This document shows positions 5,555 to 20,013 of a stretch of DNA of 20,815 bases, piece after piece. The DNA comes from a virus (taxonomy: Duplodnaviria > Heunggongvirae > Uroviricota > Caudoviricetes), in the IMG/VR virus record IMGVR_UViG_2534681773_000020. One strand, written 5' to 3'. Each line of letters opens with the position of its first letter. Within the stretch, counting starts at the first letter, position 1. The translations under genes and the position numbers were made by a program. The notes under the pieces are model-generated. The model did no database searches and was not told where the DNA came from. It worked only from the letters and a program-made list of their open reading frames with translations.

Positions 5555-5628
5555 GGTAACTCGAAGTATTGCCCGGCGTTCTGTGGGGCGGGGTGGGTTG
5601 GTATGTTGTTAAGGTAACAAGAGTTACC
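5555..5628. promoter_or_regulatory. Putative left operator/promoter region: perfect palindrome GGTAAC-AAGA-GTTACC (5613-5628) and imperfect copy GGTAAC-TCGA-AGTATT (5555-5570)
   Basis: Same GTAAC-N4-GTTAC motif recurs at oR side of cI; lies between cI terminator and first leftward gene. Confidence 0.45.
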
Positions 5629-5671
5629 TTTCGAGTCAATACAATGTTGCAAAAGGTACATTTGAGGGCAT

Positions 5672-5698
5672 GAAAAACCCGCAATGAATGCGGGTTCT
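5672..5698 (-). terminator. Intrinsic terminator downstream of cI
   Basis: On minus strand: AACCCGCA-TTCAT-TGCGGGTT stem-loop followed by TTTTC; immediately after cI stop. Confidence 0.5.
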
Positions 5699-5701
5699 GA
5701 C

Positions 5702-6418
5702 TCAGTCTAAGTATTGATGTATTTGTGAAACTTTACCTTTAATGGTGTAACCACCATTCAGTTCGATGGGTTTGTAAAGCGGATTCAGTGACAACAGATA
5801 GATGTTTGGTCCGTCAATCGCAACTTTTTTTAGTGTTACGTTTGGAGTTCCTTCCAATTGGATTAAGATTATTTTTCCCACCAGTTCTCTAATGTTACTT
5901 GAGCATGGTGTGATCAGCACGGTAGATCCGTCGGGGATGGTTGGGAGGCCGTTAGAGTTTGTCATCGCATCTCCCTCAACATGCAATAAAAAAGAGTTTT
6001 CAGCGGTTTTTGTCATGACATCAACCCAATTCTTAATACCAGGAATCTCGGTTACTGGACAACTCATATCCCAATAACCAGCCTGTTCCCACGTTAAAAC
6101 GGGCAACCGGGCGATGTTGTCACTAATGTAAGGGTACTGATTCAGACGCAGATCATCGGCTTTATCGTGACCGTCCTTTCCATAAAGAATCCATTCAGGA
6201 GATTTGGAAAGCAATTTTGACAGTAGATACAAATTCTCACCGTCAGGTTTTGAAGAGCCATTTTCCCATTTTGTTACGGATACACGAGATATGCCGATTG
6301 CTTTCGCAACCTGCTGTTGGGTTAATCCAACGTCTTTTCGACGATTCCGAATACGTTCGCTGATAGTGTTTTTCATGTAACCAATGTTACTACCAAGTGA
6401 TGTTGCTATGGTTGACAT
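5702..6418 (-). CDS. cI: CI-type phage repressor (N-terminal XRE-family HTH, C-terminal S24 LexA-like autopeptidase)
   Basis: 238 aa; HTH QQQVAKAIGISRVSVTKWENG; C-terminal S24-like region with GDAM and KK motifs; no SD upstream of ATG, consistent with leaderless translation as for lambda cI from pRM. Confidence 0.9.
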   Translation of the reverse strand: MSTIATSLGSNIGYMKNTISERIRNRRKDVGLTQQQVAKAIGISRVSVTKWENGSSKPDGENLYLLSKLLSKSPEWILYGKDGHDKADDLRLNQYPYISDNIARLPVLTWEQAGYWDMSCPVTEIPGIKNWVDVMTKTAENSFLLHVEGDAMTNSNGLPTIPDGSTVLITPCSSNIRELVGKIILIQLEGTPNVTLKKVAIDGPNIYLLSLNPLYKPIELNGGYTIKGKVSQIHQYLD

Positions 6419-6438
6419 TGTTATGTAACTATTGTTAC
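6377..6438. promoter_or_regulatory. Putative right operator/divergent promoter region: GTAAC-CAAT-GTTAC (6377-6390) and GTAAC-TATT-GTTAC (6425-6438); TTGACA hexamer at 6412-6417
   Basis: Two inverted-repeat sites with the same half-sites as the oL palindrome, spaced 48 bp centre to centre, spanning the cI start and the cI-cro intergenic region. Confidence 0.45.
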
Positions 6439-6467
6439 CCTTCTACTCGAAATAACAGGAGAGTTTT

Positions 6468-6683
6468 ATGTTCAAAGATGATGTTCTGCGCTATTTCAAA
6501 AAAAAGCGACTAGTAGCTGAGGCTCTTGGAATTTCACATGTGGCTGTTGTGCGGTGGAAAGCAGTTATTCCCAAACTTCGCGCAATGGAACTGGATGAAA
6601 TTACTAACGGTGAATTGAAATACAACCCAGAACTTTACAAGAAGCAGGATAGCACCTCAAACGAAGGAAAGAATGATTCATGA
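6468..6683 (+). CDS. cro: Cro-like regulator (YdaS-family HTH protein)
   Basis: 71 aa, divergent from cI; AGGAGAG SD; HTH segment LVAEALGISHVAVVRW; followed by coupled ydaT-like gene. Confidence 0.8.
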   Translation: MFKDDVLRYFKKKRLVAEALGISHVAVVRWKAVIPKLRAMELDEITNGELKYNPELYKKQDSTSNEGKNDS

Positions 6684-7105
6684 AAATCAAGCATGAACAC
6701 ATCCGCATGGCGATGAATGTCTGGGCGCATCCGGACGGCGAAAAAGTACCGGCTGCGAAAATTACCAAAGCGTATTTCGAGCTGGGAATGACGTTCCCGG
6801 AACTGTATGACGACAGCCATCCGGAAGCCCTGGGTCGTAATACCCAGAAAATTTTCCGCTGGCTGAAGAAAGACACTCCTGATGCGGTTAAAAAAATTCA
6901 GGCGTTGTTACCGGCGATCGAAAAAGCAATGCCGCCTCCGCTGGTGGCCCGAATGCGCAGCCACAGTTCGGAATATCACCGGGAGCTTGTCGAGCGACGG
7001 GAGCGCCTGGTGAAAGATATCGATGAGTTTGTTGCATCAGCGATCGTTCTGTTCGATCAGATGAATCGCGGTGGTCCGGCAGGAAATACTCTGCTTGTGC
7101 ATTAA
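6680..7105 (+). CDS. ydaT: YdaT-like protein (CII-position regulator / putative toxin YdaT family)
   Basis: 141 aa; N-terminus MKIKHEHI as recalled for Rac YdaT; ATGA overlap with cro stop; AAGGAAAG SD. Confidence 0.7.
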   Translation: MKIKHEHIRMAMNVWAHPDGEKVPAAKITKAYFELGMTFPELYDDSHPEALGRNTQKIFRWLKKDTPDAVKKIQALLPAIEKAMPPPLVARMRSHSSEYHRELVERRERLVKDIDEFVASAIVLFDQMNRGGPAGNTLLVH

Positions 7106-7118
7106 TTGGGTAATAAAT

Positions 7119-7628
7119 ATGAATAATGACAAAAAATTGACACTGAGCGTTTACGAAAACAGTCCGCACATCTGGCGTGGCGGTTTATCTGATGTGGAGC
7201 TGGCAGAGTGGTTGATACATAAAGCTAATGCGCTGCTCTGGCGTTTGTCAGCCAGAGAACAGCACAAGGAAACCAGAATAAAGCTGGCTGATGCAGAAGC
7301 GTGTGCCGGGCTTATTGAGGATTATACAAATCTTGGTATTTCTTCAGCAGAGAGTGATCCCATTCAGCCTCTGAGCAGGGAGTCAATCCAGCACGCTGGT
7401 TGTATGGCACATCTTGTAACTGCTCGTCAACATGAGGTGGGTATTGGATCACTTCCGGTGGGATATTCGCTGATTCCAGAGCTGGTTGAAGCAAGAAAAT
7501 CAGTTCAGAAAAAGAGAGATGACGCACTTCAATTATTGAGAGAGCACTATGGCGCGATACCAGAATGCGAACAGCGTCGATACCCTGAAGGTTATGAATG
7601 GATGCAGTCTCTTTTTGAAGTTCGCTAA
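7119..7628 (+). CDS. Hypothetical protein (169 aa)
   Basis: Long ORF between ydaT-like and replication genes; ATG at 7119 chosen because the GTG at 7071 overlaps ydaT; weak SD. Confidence 0.55.
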   Translation: MNNDKKLTLSVYENSPHIWRGGLSDVELAEWLIHKANALLWRLSAREQHKETRIKLADAEACAGLIEDYTNLGISSAESDPIQPLSRESIQHAGCMAHLVTARQHEVGIGSLPVGYSLIPELVEARKSVQKKRDDALQLLREHYGAIPECEQRRYPEGYEWMQSLFEVR

Positions 7629-7845
7629 TCAATATGTCGAGACGAAGGTATGTTTCGGCGCGCAGCTAGGCTCTGTAATCCGGGAGCATTTCGGGGCTGT
7701 TACACCAACGGTTTGTTGCTGCAACATTTAATACATGAGCCTGATAAAGGCTTTTCAAAAAATACATGTCGAACCTCCTCTGGTTCTGTCGATTGGGAAT
7801 CACAGATTATACCTGGAGGAAGGTTCGACACCAGATGAGGCAATT

Positions 7846-8865
7846 ATGGCCGCATTACCATACATGCAACTGTACATAGCTGATTACCTTGCTGACACCA
7901 TGCATTTGTCAGCAGAGGAGCACGGTGCGTATTTGTTGCTGATGTTCAATTACTGGCAAACAGGAAAGCCAATACCTAAAAACAGGCTGGCAAAAATTTC
8001 CCGTCTGACTAACGAGCGATGGGCTGATGTGGAACCATCCTTGCGGGAGTTTTTTTGCGATAACGGCGATGAATGGGTGCATCTTCGGATTGAGGAAGAT
8101 CTGGCATCAGTCAGGGAAAAATTAACCAAAAAATCAGCCGCCGGAAAAGCATCTGTTCAAGCCAGAAGAAGCAGAAAGGAAGCAGATGTTCAAACAAAAC
8201 AAGAGAGAGATTTAACAGGTGTTCAAACAAATGTTGGCGTGGTGTTTGAACATGGCGCAAACACAAAAGCAACTAATAAAGATACAGATACAGATCTAAA
8301 AGAATTAAACCCCACACATAACGCGCGCATGCGCGAGAGTGCTCCGACCAGTGAGTCGAATGGCGTGCCGTTGCAGGCAGCGGAACCTGATTACCTGGAA
8401 GGCCTGAGCGAACCCATCGGGAAATTTCCGATGACCGATGGCTGGCATCCGTCGCCGGATTTTCGACGGCGGGCTGCACTGTGGGGAGTGACTCTGCCGG
8501 AGTCGGAATTTACGCCTGCTGAACTTGCCGCCTTCCGGGACTACTGGGCAGCGGAGGGGAAAGTGTTTACGCAGATTCAGTGGGAGCAGAAATTCGCCCG
8601 TCACGTAAATCACGTCAGGGCGCAGGTTAAACCAGTCAGCAAGGGGGTAAACCATGCAGCAGCACCAGGTGGCACCGCATCACGGGCAGTTCAGGAAATT
8701 CGGGCAGCACGTGAGCAGTGGGAACGTGAAAACGGATTTATCAGCGACGGAAACGGCCTGGAAGCTGTGGGAACTCATGGGGGAGGTTTATTCGAACCGC
8801 TGGACCCAGAAAAACGGGGCCGCACCTTCGAAGCTCTGGATTGCACAGATTGGCGCGATGACTGA
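7846..8865 (+). CDS. Replication initiator, DUF1376 (YdaU-like) family; lambda O functional analog
   Basis: N-terminal DUF1376-like motif YIADYLADTMHLSAEEHGAYLLLMFNYWQTG; GAGG 5 nt upstream of ATG 7846 (ORF track alternative 7735); internal iteron-like repeats and AT-rich stretch in the inter-domain linker. Confidence 0.7.
   Translation: MAALPYMQLYIADYLADTMHLSAEEHGAYLLLMFNYWQTGKPIPKNRLAKISRLTNERWADVEPSLREFFCDNGDEWVHLRIEEDLASVREKLTKKSAAGKASVQARRSRKEADVQTKQERDLTGVQTNVGVVFEHGANTKATNKDTDTDLKELNPTHNARMRESAPTSESNGVPLQAAEPDYLEGLSEPIGKFPMTDGWHPSPDFRRRAALWGVTLPESEFTPAELAAFRDYWAAEGKVFTQIQWEQKFARHVNHVRAQVKPVSKGVNHAAAPGGTASRAVQEIRAAREQWERENGFISDGNGLEAVGTHGGGLFEPLDPEKRGRTFEALDCTDWRDD
8187..8310. repeat. 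Putative replication origin: TGTTCAAACAAA direct repeats at 8187-8198 and 8220-8231, inverted copy TGTTTGAACA at 8243-8252, followed by A-rich tract
   Basis: Direct repeats 33 bp apart inside the initiator gene linker, analogous to lambda ori iterons within O. Confidence 0.4.
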
Positions 8866-9319
8866 GCAGCAAATCCGACAGGTCTGCCGCCAGTGCATGG
8901 ACCGCTGCCGGGCGGGTGAAACATGGCCTCCGGACCTGGCTGAGTTTGTGGCACTGATTTCGGAAAGCGGAGTCAATCCATTCGGTCTGACGGTGGATGC
9001 TGTGATGGAGGAGTACCGCCGCTGGCGCAATGAGTCCTGGCGATACGACGGAAGTGATAAGTACCCGTGGTCTCAGCCTGTGCTGTATCACATTTGTCTC
9101 GAGATGCGTTCAAAGGGGATCGAGCGTCAGATGACCGAAGGGGAGTTAAAACGACTTGCAGAACGGCAGCTGACGAAATGGGCAAAGCATGTTGGTAACG
9201 GCCTCAGTGTTCCGCCAGTCCGGCGGCAACTGGCGGCACCCAAACGACCGTCGGGACCAACGCCAATTGAGTTGCTGAAACAGGAATATGAGCGCCGGAA
9301 AGCGGCTGGTTTTGTATGA
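8654..9319 (+). CDS. Replication protein P-like (DnaB helicase loader)
   Basis: C-terminal half resembles lambda P (LAEFVALI, YPWSQPVLYHI, TEGELKRLAERQL); AAGGGGG SD before ATG 8654; alternative starts at 8777 and 8858 (ATGACTGA overlap with upstream stop). Confidence 0.65.
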   Translation: MQQHQVAPHHGQFRKFGQHVSSGNVKTDLSATETAWKLWELMGEVYSNRWTQKNGAAPSKLWIAQIGAMTEQQIRQVCRQCMDRCRAGETWPPDLAEFVALISESGVNPFGLTVDAVMEEYRRWRNESWRYDGSDKYPWSQPVLYHICLEMRSKGIERQMTEGELKRLAERQLTKWAKHVGNGLSVPPVRRQLAAPKRPSGPTPIELLKQEYERRKAAGFV

Positions 9320-9741
9320 ATTGTGAAGGTGATTTTTCAGGAGGGCTTGTGGCAAAAGCATATACACCCGAACAGCGGGAGAATCTGAAGGCTCGAATAA
9401 TCGATCTGGTGCGCAAAAATGAACGCATGACGATGTCACAGCTGGAGAGAGCGACGGGAGCAGGCTGGCATTCGGTTCGACGCTGCCTTGTGGATGTGCT
9501 GGCTTGCGGGGATTTATACATGTCCGGTAAATACGGTGTTTTTGCGTCAGAGCAGGCGTATCGCACATGGCGTAAGAAGCCGGAGAAAGCGGACATGGCG
9601 CTGGTCAGAAAGCTGCCAGATGGAGAAATACGTCGCTACGACAGGAGTCAGAACATAATTTGTCGCGAGTGCCGGAAGAGCGAAGCTATGCAGCGTGTAC
9701 TGGCTTTTTATCAGGGTAATTATCAGGAGGTGATGGCGTGA
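9316..9741 (+). CDS. Hypothetical protein with predicted winged-helix segment (141 aa)
   Basis: ATGA overlap with P-like stop; HTH-like MTMSQLERATGAGWHSVRRCLVDV; CRECRK near C-terminus. Confidence 0.65.
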   Translation: MNCEGDFSGGLVAKAYTPEQRENLKARIIDLVRKNERMTMSQLERATGAGWHSVRRCLVDVLACGDLYMSGKYGVFASEQAYRTWRKKPEKADMALVRKLPDGEIRRYDRSQNIICRECRKSEAMQRVLAFYQGNYQEVMA

Positions 9742-10037
9742 GGGTGAGGGTTTATATCGCTGGTCCGATGATCGGGTATAAAAATTTCAACCGTGAGGCG
9801 TTCCACAATGCGGAAGAGGAACTGAAACGGGAAGGGCATACAGTCTTAAACCCGGCAGTACTTCCGGACGGGCTGACACAGCCGCACTACATGGATATTT
9901 GCATGGCAATGATTCGTTGTGTGGATGCGATTTACATGCTGAAAGGCTGGCAGCGGTCAGCTGGCGCTAAGGCAGAACTGGCGCTGGCGGAGAAACTGGG
10001 GCATGCAGTTATTTTCCAGGAGACAGCCAGTGAGTGA
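9738..10037 (+). CDS. DUF4406 / nucleoside 2-deoxyribosyltransferase-like fold protein (99 aa)
   Basis: GTG start with AGGAGG 7 nt upstream, GTGA overlap with previous stop; N-terminal YIAGPM motif typical of the nucleoside deoxyribosyltransferase-like superfamily. Confidence 0.65.
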   Translation: MRVRVYIAGPMIGYKNFNREAFHNAEEELKREGHTVLNPAVLPDGLTQPHYMDICMAMIRCVDAIYMLKGWQRSAGAKAELALAEKLGHAVIFQETASE

Positions 10038-12230: not shown

Positions 12231-12238
12231 ATTCATTA

Positions 12239-12475
12239 CGATATGGGAATTCCCATATCGGGTAAAAACGGTTTGCGGTAAAGCGAGAGTTAAGTAGAAT
12301 TGCTGCGGGTGCTTGAGGCTGTCTGCCTCGGGCATGCCACCGTAAGGCAGACAGAGAAAAGCCCCAGTTAACATTACGCGTCCTGCAAGACGCTTAACAT
12401 TAATCTGAGGCCCAATCTATGCTTCACAAACGTAGGTTAGCCTCTTACGCGCCGAAAGGCAAGGAGAAGCAGGCT
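12239..12475. promoter_or_regulatory. Structured leader/regulatory region upstream of hok-like toxin (candidate mok-leader and antisense Sok-like RNA region)
   Basis: 22-bp perfect palindrome CGATATGGGAATTCCCATATCG (12239-12260); 10-bp inverted repeat CTGTCTGCCT/AGGCAGACAG (about 12319-12354); direct repeat TTAACATTA x2 flanking GCGTC/GACGC hairpin (about 12368-12402). Confidence 0.4.
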
Positions 12476-18162: not shown

Positions 18163-20013
18163 ATGACATTTAAACATTATGATGTTGTCAGGGCGGCGTC
18201 GCCGTCAGACCTTGCGGAAAAGCTGACACACAAACTGAAAGAGGGCTGGCAGCCGTTTGGTAGTCCGGTGGCCATAACCCCTTATACCCTGATGCAGGCG
18301 ATTACAGCAGAAGGTGATGTGGTGGTCAGTGGTGCAACTGAGCCGGATTGGTACTACGTCATCGTACTGGCCGGGCAATCCAATGCCATGGCTTACGGTG
18401 AAGGGCTTCCGCTGCCGGATTCATACGATGCTCCGGATCCGCGCATTAAACAGCTGGCGCGCCGCAGTACAGTTACGCCGGGTGGGGCTGCCTGCAGATA
18501 TAACGATATTATTCCGGCCGACCACTGCCTGCATGATGTGCAGGATATGAGTACGCTGAATCATCCGAAGGCAGACCTGAGCAAAGGGCAGTACGGCTGT
18601 GTCGGCCAGGGCTTACATATTGCCAAAAAACTGCTTCCGTATATCCCGAATAACGCGGGGATCCTGCTGGTACCATGCTGTCGTGGTGGTTCGGCATTCA
18701 CCCAGGGCGCGGAGGGGACATTCAGTGCGGACGCGGGGGCCAGCCAGGATTCGGCACGCTGGGGTGTGGGTAAACCGTTATATCAGGACCTGATTGCGCG
18801 CACCAAAGCTGCATTACAGAAGAACCCGAAAAATGTGTTGCTGGCGGTGTGCTGGATGCAGGGAGAGTTTGACATGAGCGCCGCCACCCACGCACAGCAA
18901 CCTGCGCTGTTTACAGCCATGCTGACACAGTTTCGTGTTGACCTCTCCGTGTTTAACGCGCAGTGCCATGGTGGCAGTGCTGCAGATGTGCCGTGGATTT
19001 GTGGTGACACGACGTATTACTGGAAAAATACATACGCTACCCAGTACGACACCGTGTACGGCGGGTATAAAAACAGGGAGAGTGAGGGCGTTTATTTTGT
19101 GCCCTTCATGACAGACGGTAACGGCGTCAATACCGCCACTAACGCGCCGGCAGAAGATCCGGATATTCCGGCATCAGGATATTACGGTGCGGCATCGAGA
19201 ACGAATGGAAACCAGGTATCATCAAACCGCCCGACACATTTCAGTTCATGGGCGCGCAGGAGCATTATTCCGGATCGTCTGGCAACCGCTATTCTGAACG
19301 CAGCCGGGCGCACCTCAGCCTTCATCAGTGGTAAGGCACCGGAAATCAAACCCTCGCCCGGCGGCAACACGCCATCGGGTCCGTCTGCAGATACGTCCGT
19401 TCGCACAATCTCCCTGCTGCCGACAGCCGGAGAGGCTGCTGCGCAGGGCTGGACCATTAAGGACGGCGGAATTCAGTTGTCGGGTGGTGTATTTAAGATC
19501 GCCAAGCAGAGCAATAAAACCTGGTCCCTGACGCATCCGGTGGATGACGCAATTACCCTGCTGACACAGGGCGGCAGACTGACCTGTAAGTTCCGCCTGT
19601 CAGGCGCGCTGACCAACAATCAGTTCGGGCTGGGGATTTATCTGTATACGGATGCTCCCGTTCCTGATGGTGTGGCGATGACGGGTACCGGTAATCCGTT
19701 CCTGATGTCGTACTTCACTCAGACCACTGACGGCAGAGTGAATCTGATGCATCACAGGAAAGCCGGAAACACGAAGCTGGGGGAGTTCGGCGATTACGGT
19801 AACGACTGGCAGACGCTGGAGCTGGTGTTCACCGCCGGCAGTGCCACGGTTACTCCGAAACTGAATGGAGTGGCTGGCCCGGCATTCCAGGTCATAAAAG
19901 ACAGTCTGACACTGGGGCTGAATGCGCTGACGCTGACGGATATTACCAAAAATGCAGCGTATGGCGTTGAGATAGAAAGTCTGGTGCTGGAGATAAATGC
20001 ACCGGCAGCATAA
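18163..20013 (+). CDS. nanS-p: Prophage sialate 9-O-acetylesterase (NanS-p type; N-terminal DUF1737-like region plus SGNH/SASA esterase domain)
   Basis: 616 aa; GGGAGGAA SD; N-terminus MTFKHYDVVRAASPSDLAEKL; SASA block VLAGQSNAMAYGEG; the position downstream of the late tRNAs is where Stx phages carry this gene. Confidence 0.8.
   Translation: MTFKHYDVVRAASPSDLAEKLTHKLKEGWQPFGSPVAITPYTLMQAITAEGDVVVSGATEPDWYYVIVLAGQSNAMAYGEGLPLPDSYDAPDPRIKQLARRSTVTPGGAACRYNDIIPADHCLHDVQDMSTLNHPKADLSKGQYGCVGQGLHIAKKLLPYIPNNAGILLVPCCRGGSAFTQGAEGTFSADAGASQDSARWGVGKPLYQDLIARTKAALQKNPKNVLLAVCWMQGEFDMSAATHAQQPALFTAMLTQFRVDLSVFNAQCHGGSAADVPWICGDTTYYWKNTYATQYDTVYGGYKNRESEGVYFVPFMTDGNGVNTATNAPAEDPDIPASGYYGAASRTNGNQVSSNRPTHFSSWARRSIIPDRLATAILNAAGRTSAFISGKAPEIKPSPGGNTPSGPSADTSVRTISLLPTAGEAAAQGWTIKDGGIQLSGGVFKIAKQSNKTWSLTHPVDDAITLLTQGGRLTCKFRLSGALTNNQFGLGIYLYTDAPVPDGVAMTGTGNPFLMSYFTQTTDGRVNLMHHRKAGNTKLGEFGDYGNDWQTLELVFTAGSATVTPKLNGVAGPAFQVIKDSLTLGLNALTLTDITKNAAYGVEIESLVLEINAPAA

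Follow-up and report, generated by a model that had tools for sequence, protein, structure and literature searches.

Where a Rac-type lambdoid prophage starts to replicate its DNA, and whether that site could lie inside the gene for its own replication initiator, is the question raised by a stretch of viral DNA of 20,815 nucleotides (IMG/VR record IMGVR_UViG_2534681773_000020; Caudoviricetes), referred to here as the window. Judged by its sequence, the window is a Rac-like Escherichia coli prophage. Its ydaU-type initiator gene carries a cluster of short direct and inverted repeats, followed by an A-rich tract, in the part that encodes the linker between two protein domains. We propose, with a probability of roughly 0.7, that positions 8154–8335 in this linker-coding part form the vegetative replication origin of the prophage, because the repeats and the A-rich tract behave as a DNA-level signal that occupies the same place in an initiator gene family across very different bacteria. 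What is found is what would mark an origin within an initiator gene: a repeat cluster between the parts coding for the N- and C-terminal domains, a neighbouring A+T-rich region of low stability, and constraint on the linker as DNA. The gene and the elements assigned to the proposed origin are as follows.

7846–8865, plus strand: YdaU-type replication initiator gene, 339 amino acids (open reading frame (ORF) call; Pfam DUF1376 and DnaT; PHROG)
7858–8106, plus strand: region coding for the DUF1376 domain, amino acids 5–87; predicted winged helix, presumed repeat-binding module
8425–8625, plus strand: region coding for the DnaT-like single-stranded DNA (ssDNA)-binding domain, amino acids 194–260 (Pfam PF17948; DnaT C-domain, PDB 6aep, E 2.4e-19)
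8154–8163, plus strand: degenerate unit TGTTCAAGCC, 33 base pairs (bp) upstream of the first full copy (repeat family D1 in K-12, spacing 33, 33, 12)
8187–8198, plus strand: unit TGTTCAAACAAA, copy 1; Rac-lineage extra copy, variable among close relatives
8220–8231, plus strand: unit TGTTCAAACAAA, copy 2; opens the conserved core of three units and keeps register with (C/T)GTTCAACG in genes of other Enterobacteriaceae and of Pseudomonas
8232–8241, plus strand: degenerate unit TGTTGGCGTG, reading TGTTGAAGTG in K-12 Rac, 12 bp after the start of copy 2; aligns with the GTGTTAA / CGTTGA units of relatives
8243–8253, minus strand: inverted unit TGTTTGAACAT, reverse complement of ATGTTCAAACA; matched in alignment by CCGTTTGAACAG in genes of Enterobacter, Klebsiella and Pantoea
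8186–8275, no strand: array of about eight units phased at 11 bp, proposed initiator-binding part (anchored comparison of 32 genes)
8275–8310, plus strand: AATAAA, (GATACA)2 and GATCTAAAAGAATTAAAC; A-rich, of low stability, with one GATC; proposed unwinding region (duplex energy, codon use)
8324–8335, no strand: GC-rich perfect 12-bp palindrome CGCGCATGCGCG, directly after the A-rich tract

Repeat units and A-rich tract in the initiator gene

The gene product belongs to the DUF1376 family, with 91.2 bits against Pfam PF07120 over amino acids 5–87 (gathering cut-off 30.1, E 5e-26). It also matches the Pfam DNA-binding domain of DnaT over amino acids 194–260 (E 6e-18), and the names given by PHROG are 'primosomal protein' and 'replication initiation protein'. 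The repeats encode amino acids 103–136 and fall in the linker between the DUF1376 part, which ends at 8106, and the DnaT part, which starts at 8425. An earlier reading of this DNA, made from its letters without database searches (the sequence-only reading), had described here a 12-mer repeated directly at a distance of 33 bp, an inverted copy and an A-rich stretch, all within the inter-domain linker. These observations hold throughout, with TGTTCAAACAAA at 8187–8198 and 8220–8231, TGTTTGAACAT at 8243–8253, and 57% A (31/54) on the top strand of 8257–8310. That listing was incomplete, as the degenerate units at 8154 and 8232 and the (GATACA)2 at 8281–8292, inside the A-rich stretch, had been overlooked.

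The two TGTTCAAACAAA starts are 11 codons apart and in frame. With the degenerate units at 8154 and 8232 included, the spacing of unit starts becomes 33, 33, 12 and 11 bp. The inverted copy, TGTTTGAACA(T), pairs with 8186–8196 as a perfect inverted repeat of 11 nucleotides, and the exact 10-mer TGTTCAAACA occurs at three sites only in the window (8187, 8220 and, inverted, 8243). The unit is itself nearly palindromic (TGTT-CA-AACA). In dinucleotide-preserving shuffles of the window, some 12-mer direct repeat within 60 bp arose in 54 of 1000 cases, and in 1 of 1000 an inverted 10-mer lay close to such a repeat. Positions 8161–8310 form the most repeat-dense 150 nucleotides of the window, and the homologous stretch likewise ranks first in the 18-kb Rac locus of K-12. 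Comparison with relatives assigns the conserved core to 8220–8253 and a length of about 11 bp to the functional unit, and it makes the 12-mer at 8187 an extra of the Rac lineage. This corrects the sequence-only reading, in which the repeat was a 12-mer at 33-bp spacing. For a unit mutant, replacement of TGTTCAAACA by TGAACAAACA is proposed as a design.

The A-rich stretch reaches an AT skew of about 0.5. The 40 bp starting at 8270 have a nearest-neighbour duplex free energy of -43.2 kcal/mol, compared with a window mean of -56.5 (standard deviation 4.1), and rank as the fourth least stable stretch in 20.8 kb; the three less stable spots apparently lie at gene ends or between genes. Such a stability minimum is uncommon inside a long ORF. 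The GC-rich palindrome at 8324–8335 may belong to the origin, and ACGCGCGC-like motifs occur at the matching relative place in Moraxella phage Mcat32 and in several Enterobacter, Kluyvera and Pseudomonas loci (L096, L097, L103, L112, L120).

Conservation of the linker as DNA

A scan of one genome per species gave 80 loci with DUF1376 domains, at 36–97% identity to the query, to which isolated phages were added. Nearly all relatives examined (about 70 distinct genes) display a two-part DNA architecture directly after the DUF1376 domain. The unit of the first part is (C/T)GTT(C/G)AAC(G) in Enterobacteriaceae, Pseudomonas, Rahnella, Serratia, Azotobacter, Propionivibrio, a Methylococcaceae genome and Moraxella phage Mcat32. 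It is GCAATGC/GCATTGC in Acidobacteriaceae, and GCGAACGC is among the units of other lineages. The GTTCAACG unit is found in Gammaproteobacteria and in phage Mcat32; the sequence of the unit shifts by lineage, and its position is constant. In the second part a motif of short period is iterated, namely (GATACA)n, (TCACAG)n, (TCAGAA)n, (CAACCC)n or (TAACCA)n, and A-rich sequence usually comes next. Among isolated phages, the linker array is present in Pseudomonas phages PfDIW6 and AH02 and in Moraxella phage Mcat32.

Counted from the start of (GATACA)n as anchor, AAC(G) of the enterobacterial genes falls at -88, -77, -66, -55, -44, -32, -21 and -10, which amounts to eight units phased at 11 bp. 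The window retains AAC at six of these eight positions (8193, 8214, 8226, 8249, 8260 and 8271), and its counterpart of the conserved three-unit core consists of the second 12-mer, the inverted copy and, between them, the degenerate unit at 8232. Across 72 unique DUF1376 genes, the strict motif GTT[CG]AA[CA] occurs 3.9 times per kb in the linker compared with 0.33 times per kb elsewhere in the loci, a 12-fold difference. Of 22 adjacent pairs, 20 show a distance of 11 (10 cases), 22 (5) or 33 (5) bp. Because of the 11-bp phasing, the units land in all three reading frames: linker matches to the motif are distributed 17, 14 and 8 among the frames, and in phage PfDIW6 the unit is translated as RST, TVE and PLN.

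The repeats were compared with a synonymous randomisation of 70 linkers, in which the protein was kept, codons were redrawn from the gene's own usage, and exact 8-mer pairs were counted. Out-of-frame direct pairs numbered 234 (34 expected), in-frame direct pairs 1115 (146 expected) and inverted pairs 177 (48 expected). Controls of equal length gave 77 out-of-frame, 33 in-frame and 75 inverted pairs in the N-domain, and 34, 106 and 68 in the C-domain. Autocorrelation over the 100 nucleotides upstream of the hexamer run (27 unique genes) peaks at lags 11 (0.44), 22 (0.36) and 33 (0.33) over a background of about 0.26, and no lag-11 peak appears in control regions. The hexamer run is also fixed in its codons. 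Within the (DT)n runs of 22 unique genes, aspartate is encoded by GAT in 86 of 86 cases and threonine by ACA in 82 of 82. Outside these runs, the same genes, with GC contents of 42–65%, use GAT for 40% of aspartates and ACA for 16% of threonines.

Taken with the 11/22/33-bp spacing in three frames, the excess over synonymous randomisation, the lag-11 peak and the invariant GAT and ACA codons lead to the conclusion, drawn from sequence comparison, that the linker repeats are under constraint at the DNA level, whatever peptide they encode. The sequence-only reading had held that homologous DUF1376 genes would reveal whether the repeats are conserved as DNA or as protein; the family keeps them as DNA, in three frames, with phased spacing and inverted copies, above the synonymous expectation. 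N-domain residues also covary visibly with the unit sequence. This covariation is not counted as independent evidence, since it is confounded by phylogeny.

Some DUF1376 initiators (L111, L113, L115, L116 and L117, at about 1770–2040; P0032, P0044, P0060 and P0077) carry a T5orf172/GIY-YIG-like or HNH nuclease domain directly after the DUF1376 domain. The insert sits at the usual repeat position and has GCTACG/CCGTAG repeats of its own, so placed that a nuclease domain could have been inserted at the origin in those proteins. DUF1376 genes are rare on plasmids and occur there mostly in prophages on megaplasmids; the plasmid scan found no small plasmid with a DUF1376 gene as a self-contained replicon.

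Initiator protein and proposed mechanism

The structural model of the N-terminal domain is a winged helix, and its nearest matches, with moderate scores, include DNA-binding domains of replication initiators and of ORC and Cdc6 subunits. Because scores are moderate and winged helices common, the model fits a DNA-binding initiator domain without proving one, and the DUF1376 domain is consistent with such a role. The C-terminal domain (amino acids 186–270) is homologous to the ssDNA-binding C-domain of DnaT (PDB 6aep, E 2e-19). Scored over its whole length against the DnaT equivalog of NCBIfam, the initiator reaches 95.7 bits, below the cut-off of 201, and the match is one of the C-domain, not of full-length DnaT.

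A working order of events can be proposed from these parts. The winged-helix DUF1376 domain would bind the near-palindromic TGTT(CA/TG)AACA units on one face of the helix, following their 11-bp phasing. Bound initiators would then oligomerise, distorting or straining the DNA, and the neighbouring low-stability AATAAA-(GATACA)2-GATCTAAAAGAATTAAAC tract would open. The DnaT-like C-domain may hold the exposed single strand, recruit the P-like helicase loader encoded by the next gene, or do both, so that host DnaB is brought in. Transcription of the early right operon would pass through the site, as it does at the lambda origin.

Exchange of replication modules

The linker is also the place where initiator genes of different descent have been joined. 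Two further features are needed here.

8293–8310, no strand: mosaic junction, where homology to K-12 Rac ydaU ends and homology to the initiator of PPompW and Stx2a phages begins (sequence comparison)
8654–9319, plus strand: lambda-P-like helicase loader gene, start uncertain (8654, 8777 or 8858); Pfam Phage_lambda_P, E 2e-16; PHROG 109 'P-like helicase loader'

K-12 Rac ydaU is 96% identical to the window from 7846 to about 8301 and retains all units of the array. Beyond this point the sequences are unrelated, and in K-12 a different C-domain and the DnaC-like YdaV follow. PPompW and Stx2a phages show the reverse pattern, with 93.7% identity restricted to about 8299–9337. The PPompW-type N-domain is HTH_36-like and has its own (G)ACACCCAAA(AAC) repeats, about five, just upstream of the junction, ending at the shared AGATCTAAA...CCCCACACATAACGC sequence. 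These two swaps indicate that the N-domain forms one exchangeable module with the repeats, and the C-domain another with the loader. The DnaT-like C-domain occurs with a P-like loader in the window, Rac-SA53, PPompW and Chris1, and the K-12-type C-domain occurs with a DnaC-like loader in K-12 and in Pseudomonas phages PfDIW6 and AH02. In the sequences compared, the type of C-domain tracks the type of loader.

In phage PPompW_EH2246 (L003, 1800–2010), which combines an HTH_36-like N-domain with a DnaT-like C-domain, the roughly five (G)ACACCCAAA(AAC) repeats are probably that phage's own origin at the equivalent position.

Objections and alternative explanations

Several observations weigh against an origin at 8154–8335. 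The connection of the segment to replication and to protein binding is one that we infer. The first full copy, at 8187, is altered in Rac-SA53, where it reads ATATTCAAAAAA, and in about 10% of close relatives (G8188A in 4 and C8195A in 5 of 50 unique sequences), so this copy is not essential. Within the same 50 relatives, common polymorphisms hit 0 of 30 positions in the three 10-mers and 11 of 92 in the spacers, a weak and non-significant difference (Fisher p = 0.06); the viral-contig scan behind this comparison returned near-identical Rac-like loci only and was used for polymorphism, not divergence. No DnaA box (up to one mismatch) lies within the initiator gene, and no IHF consensus within 8000–8450. 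In-frame repeats and hexamer runs can also come from slippage in a disordered linker. A final objection arises from oriJ, the origin of the K-12 Rac prophage.

Mapping of oriJ is reportedly the work of Diaz et al. 1979 (Mol Gen Genet 175:151) and Potrykus et al. 2000 (Plasmid 44:111). The MG1655 RefSeq record has no origin feature in Rac. An active oriJ has been reported for the prophage (PMC3945230), and the primers said to frame 'oriJ' in that paper, the sole oriJ primers found, amplify 155 bp inside K-12 ydaV (L002, 10071–10225) and not ydaU. Either this position contradicts a placement in ydaU, or it reflects loose wording in the paper. The amplicon contains no notable repeats. On sequence grounds the linker segment of ydaU is the obvious candidate for oriJ. 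Up to 8301 the window is the near-identical counterpart of K-12 ydaU, units included, and differs after it in C-domain and loader; if oriJ does lie in ydaU, the window therefore carries a variant of oriJ.

The primer position lends itself to the alternative that survives best, although we consider it unlikely. The units would bind the initiator but act in regulation, through autorepression of the operon, copy-number control or handcuffing, with opening and helicase loading at another site of the prophage, for example downstream, in or near the loader gene. Iteron-type sites do often double as control sites, as is established for iteron plasmids. However, a low-stability, strand-asymmetric tract always stands directly after the units, a combination that DNA opening requires and that a mere operator could do without. 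Neither the ydaV amplicon nor the rest of the window holds a comparable repeat cluster. Moreover, the loader gene is swapped between relatives, being P-like or DnaC-like, whereas the repeats stay with the N-domain.

We judge it very unlikely that the repeats arose as a side effect of a disordered linker of low complexity, in which in-frame duplication or slippage generated xVQT and DTDT peptides with no function at the DNA level. The 12-mers of the window, spaced by whole codons and encoding DVQT and GVQT, are what such a process would leave, the GATACA count is polymorphic among E. coli prophages as slippage predicts, and the dipeptide runs vary by lineage (DT, SQ, SE, SP, EQ). Yet the DNA unit recurs in relatives with spacings of 11 and 22 bp and in each of the three frames, where it is translated as RST, TVQR and PLN; relative to synonymous randomisation, out-of-frame repeats are 7-fold and inverted repeats 3.7-fold in excess. 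The inverted copy is inexplicable by peptide repetition, and GAT (86/86) and ACA (82/82) are kept even in high-GC hosts.

The least probable alternative, that the conserved DNA is a module boundary kept as shared homology for recombination of phage replication modules and has no role in replication, draws on the fact that the K-12 Rac and PPompW-type junctions both fall at AGATCTAAA (about 8293–8310), but only a short GATCTAAA stretch is common to the module types, the 11-bp array is specific to the N-domain lineage and lies wholly on one side of the junction, a boundary needs no helical phasing, inverted units or low duplex stability, and a boundary here would be compatible with an origin rather than opposed to it.

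Two other kinds of element were considered for the locus and rejected. A promoter or terminator was discarded, with no sigma-70-like site in 5600–9800 and terminator-like matches at 8310–8338 that consist only of the GC palindrome on the minus strand. An RNA element was discarded with no Rfam match in 7000–9500.

Across E. coli Rac-like prophages (L008–L087), 45 of 50 unique sequences have one GATACA unit fewer than the window.

Comparison with known systems

In phage lambda, the repeats bound by the initiator lie inside gene O, between the parts encoding its N-terminal DNA-binding and C-terminal loader-contacting domains, and equivalents exist in gene 18 of P22 and in other lambdoid phages. 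The lambda origin comprises four iterons of about 19 bp, then an A-rich, strand-asymmetric tract and a palindrome, and a P-type loader gene follows. The arrangement in the window is similar: repeats inside the initiator gene between domain parts, a strand-asymmetric A-rich tract, a palindrome, and a P-type helicase loader as the next gene, in an early right operon after cro- and cII-like genes. N-domain with origin and C-domain with loader are exchangeable modules in both. The window differs in its units of about 11 bp with one-turn phasing, in the codon-invariant (GATACA)n and in the DnaT-like C-domain. Its initiator also lacks detectable similarity to lambda O, with no Pfam Phage_rep_O match at E <= 0.01. 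The likeness to lambda put forward in the sequence-only reading therefore extends to the architecture, that is, to repeats and A-rich tract between domain parts and to modular exchange, and not to homology of the protein.

RepA_N plasmids offer a second parallel. The Rep protein of pSK41 has an N-domain that binds Rep boxes in the middle of the rep gene, a central domain that is translated from the origin and serves as a dispensable linker, and a host-specific C-domain in contact with a protein of the replisome (PMC5703833). In the chimeric plasmid pPR9, the N-domain and origin have been swapped for a helix-turn-helix (HTH) module of pfam13730 and the C-domain kept (PMC5703833), a swap of the same kind as that between the DUF1376 type and the PPompW HTH_36 type described here. 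There is no match at the sequence level, the initiator having no Pfam RepA_N (PF06970) match. The family of the window resides in prophages of Proteobacteria, Acidobacteria and others rather than in plasmids of Firmicutes, and the partner is a helicase loader here and the DnaG primase there. By analogy, the arrangement in the window may resemble RepA_N plasmids even more closely in its working than it resembles the lambda origin.

DnaT, primosomal protein I of the PriA replication-restart primosome, shares the homologous ssDNA-binding C-domain. Unlike DnaT, the protein of the window has a different domain as its N-terminal half, and its gene is phage-borne and paired with a P-like loader.

Gene content and other features of the window

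The initiator gene is preceded by genes for a cI-like repressor (on the opposite strand), a Cro-like and a YdaT-like protein and followed by the P-like loader, and this order identifies the early right operon of a lambdoid prophage. At the DNA level this region is 95.9% identical to ydaU/ydaV of phage Rac-SA53, and the gene part under study matches an E. coli O55:H7 chromosome with 100% identity. The segment, or N-module, is present in 880 of 5426 complete E. coli genomes.

The loader ORF (8654–9319) overlaps the last 212 nucleotides of the initiator gene (8654–8865) in a different frame. When its product is cut at the ATG at 8858, the match to PHROG 109 does not begin before profile position 74, and that to the Pfam P family starts 13 amino acids upstream of 8858; for these reasons the true start is probably 8654 or 8777. 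PHROG 15931 (482 positions) covers the C-terminal part of the initiator and the P-like part as a single protein. Elsewhere in the window, a second local exact 12-mer direct repeat, CCGTTCCTGATG, occurs at 19658 and 19696 (19658–19707) within an ORF of 616 amino acids (18163–20013). The second most repeat-dense 150 nucleotides lie at about 12231–12380, between short ORFs downstream of the replication genes, and their repeats are all inverted.

Implications for Rac-type prophages and the DUF1376 family

The kind of element is already known, and there seems to be no earlier description of it in the DUF1376 family. A literature search whose reach did not include the primary oriJ mapping papers returned no paper on an origin in a DUF1376/ydaU gene.

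A broader and rather doubtful idea is that DUF1376 initiators from E. coli to Acidobacteria share a two-part origin. It would combine lineage-specific half-palindromic units phased at 11 bp with a DNA-invariant A/C-rich track that acts as a single-strand recognition element for the initiator or the loader, in a role like that of the DnaA-trios of bacterial chromosomal origins, beyond being easy to melt. If true, the hexamer-type track would be a new type of origin-opening element, and DUF1376 would gain a function.

The proposal assigns a concrete function to a widespread domain of unknown function, with DUF1376/YdaU as a putative origin-binding winged-helix initiator. It also offers nucleotide coordinates for the origin of Rac-type prophages and, if true, points to the whereabouts of oriJ in the K-12 laboratory strain. 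For uncharacterised prophages and phages it yields a rule for origin prediction, namely 11-bp phased units, a codon-invariant hexamer run and an A-rich tract. Lastly, the linker provides a clear case of coding sequence shaped by a second, DNA-level code.

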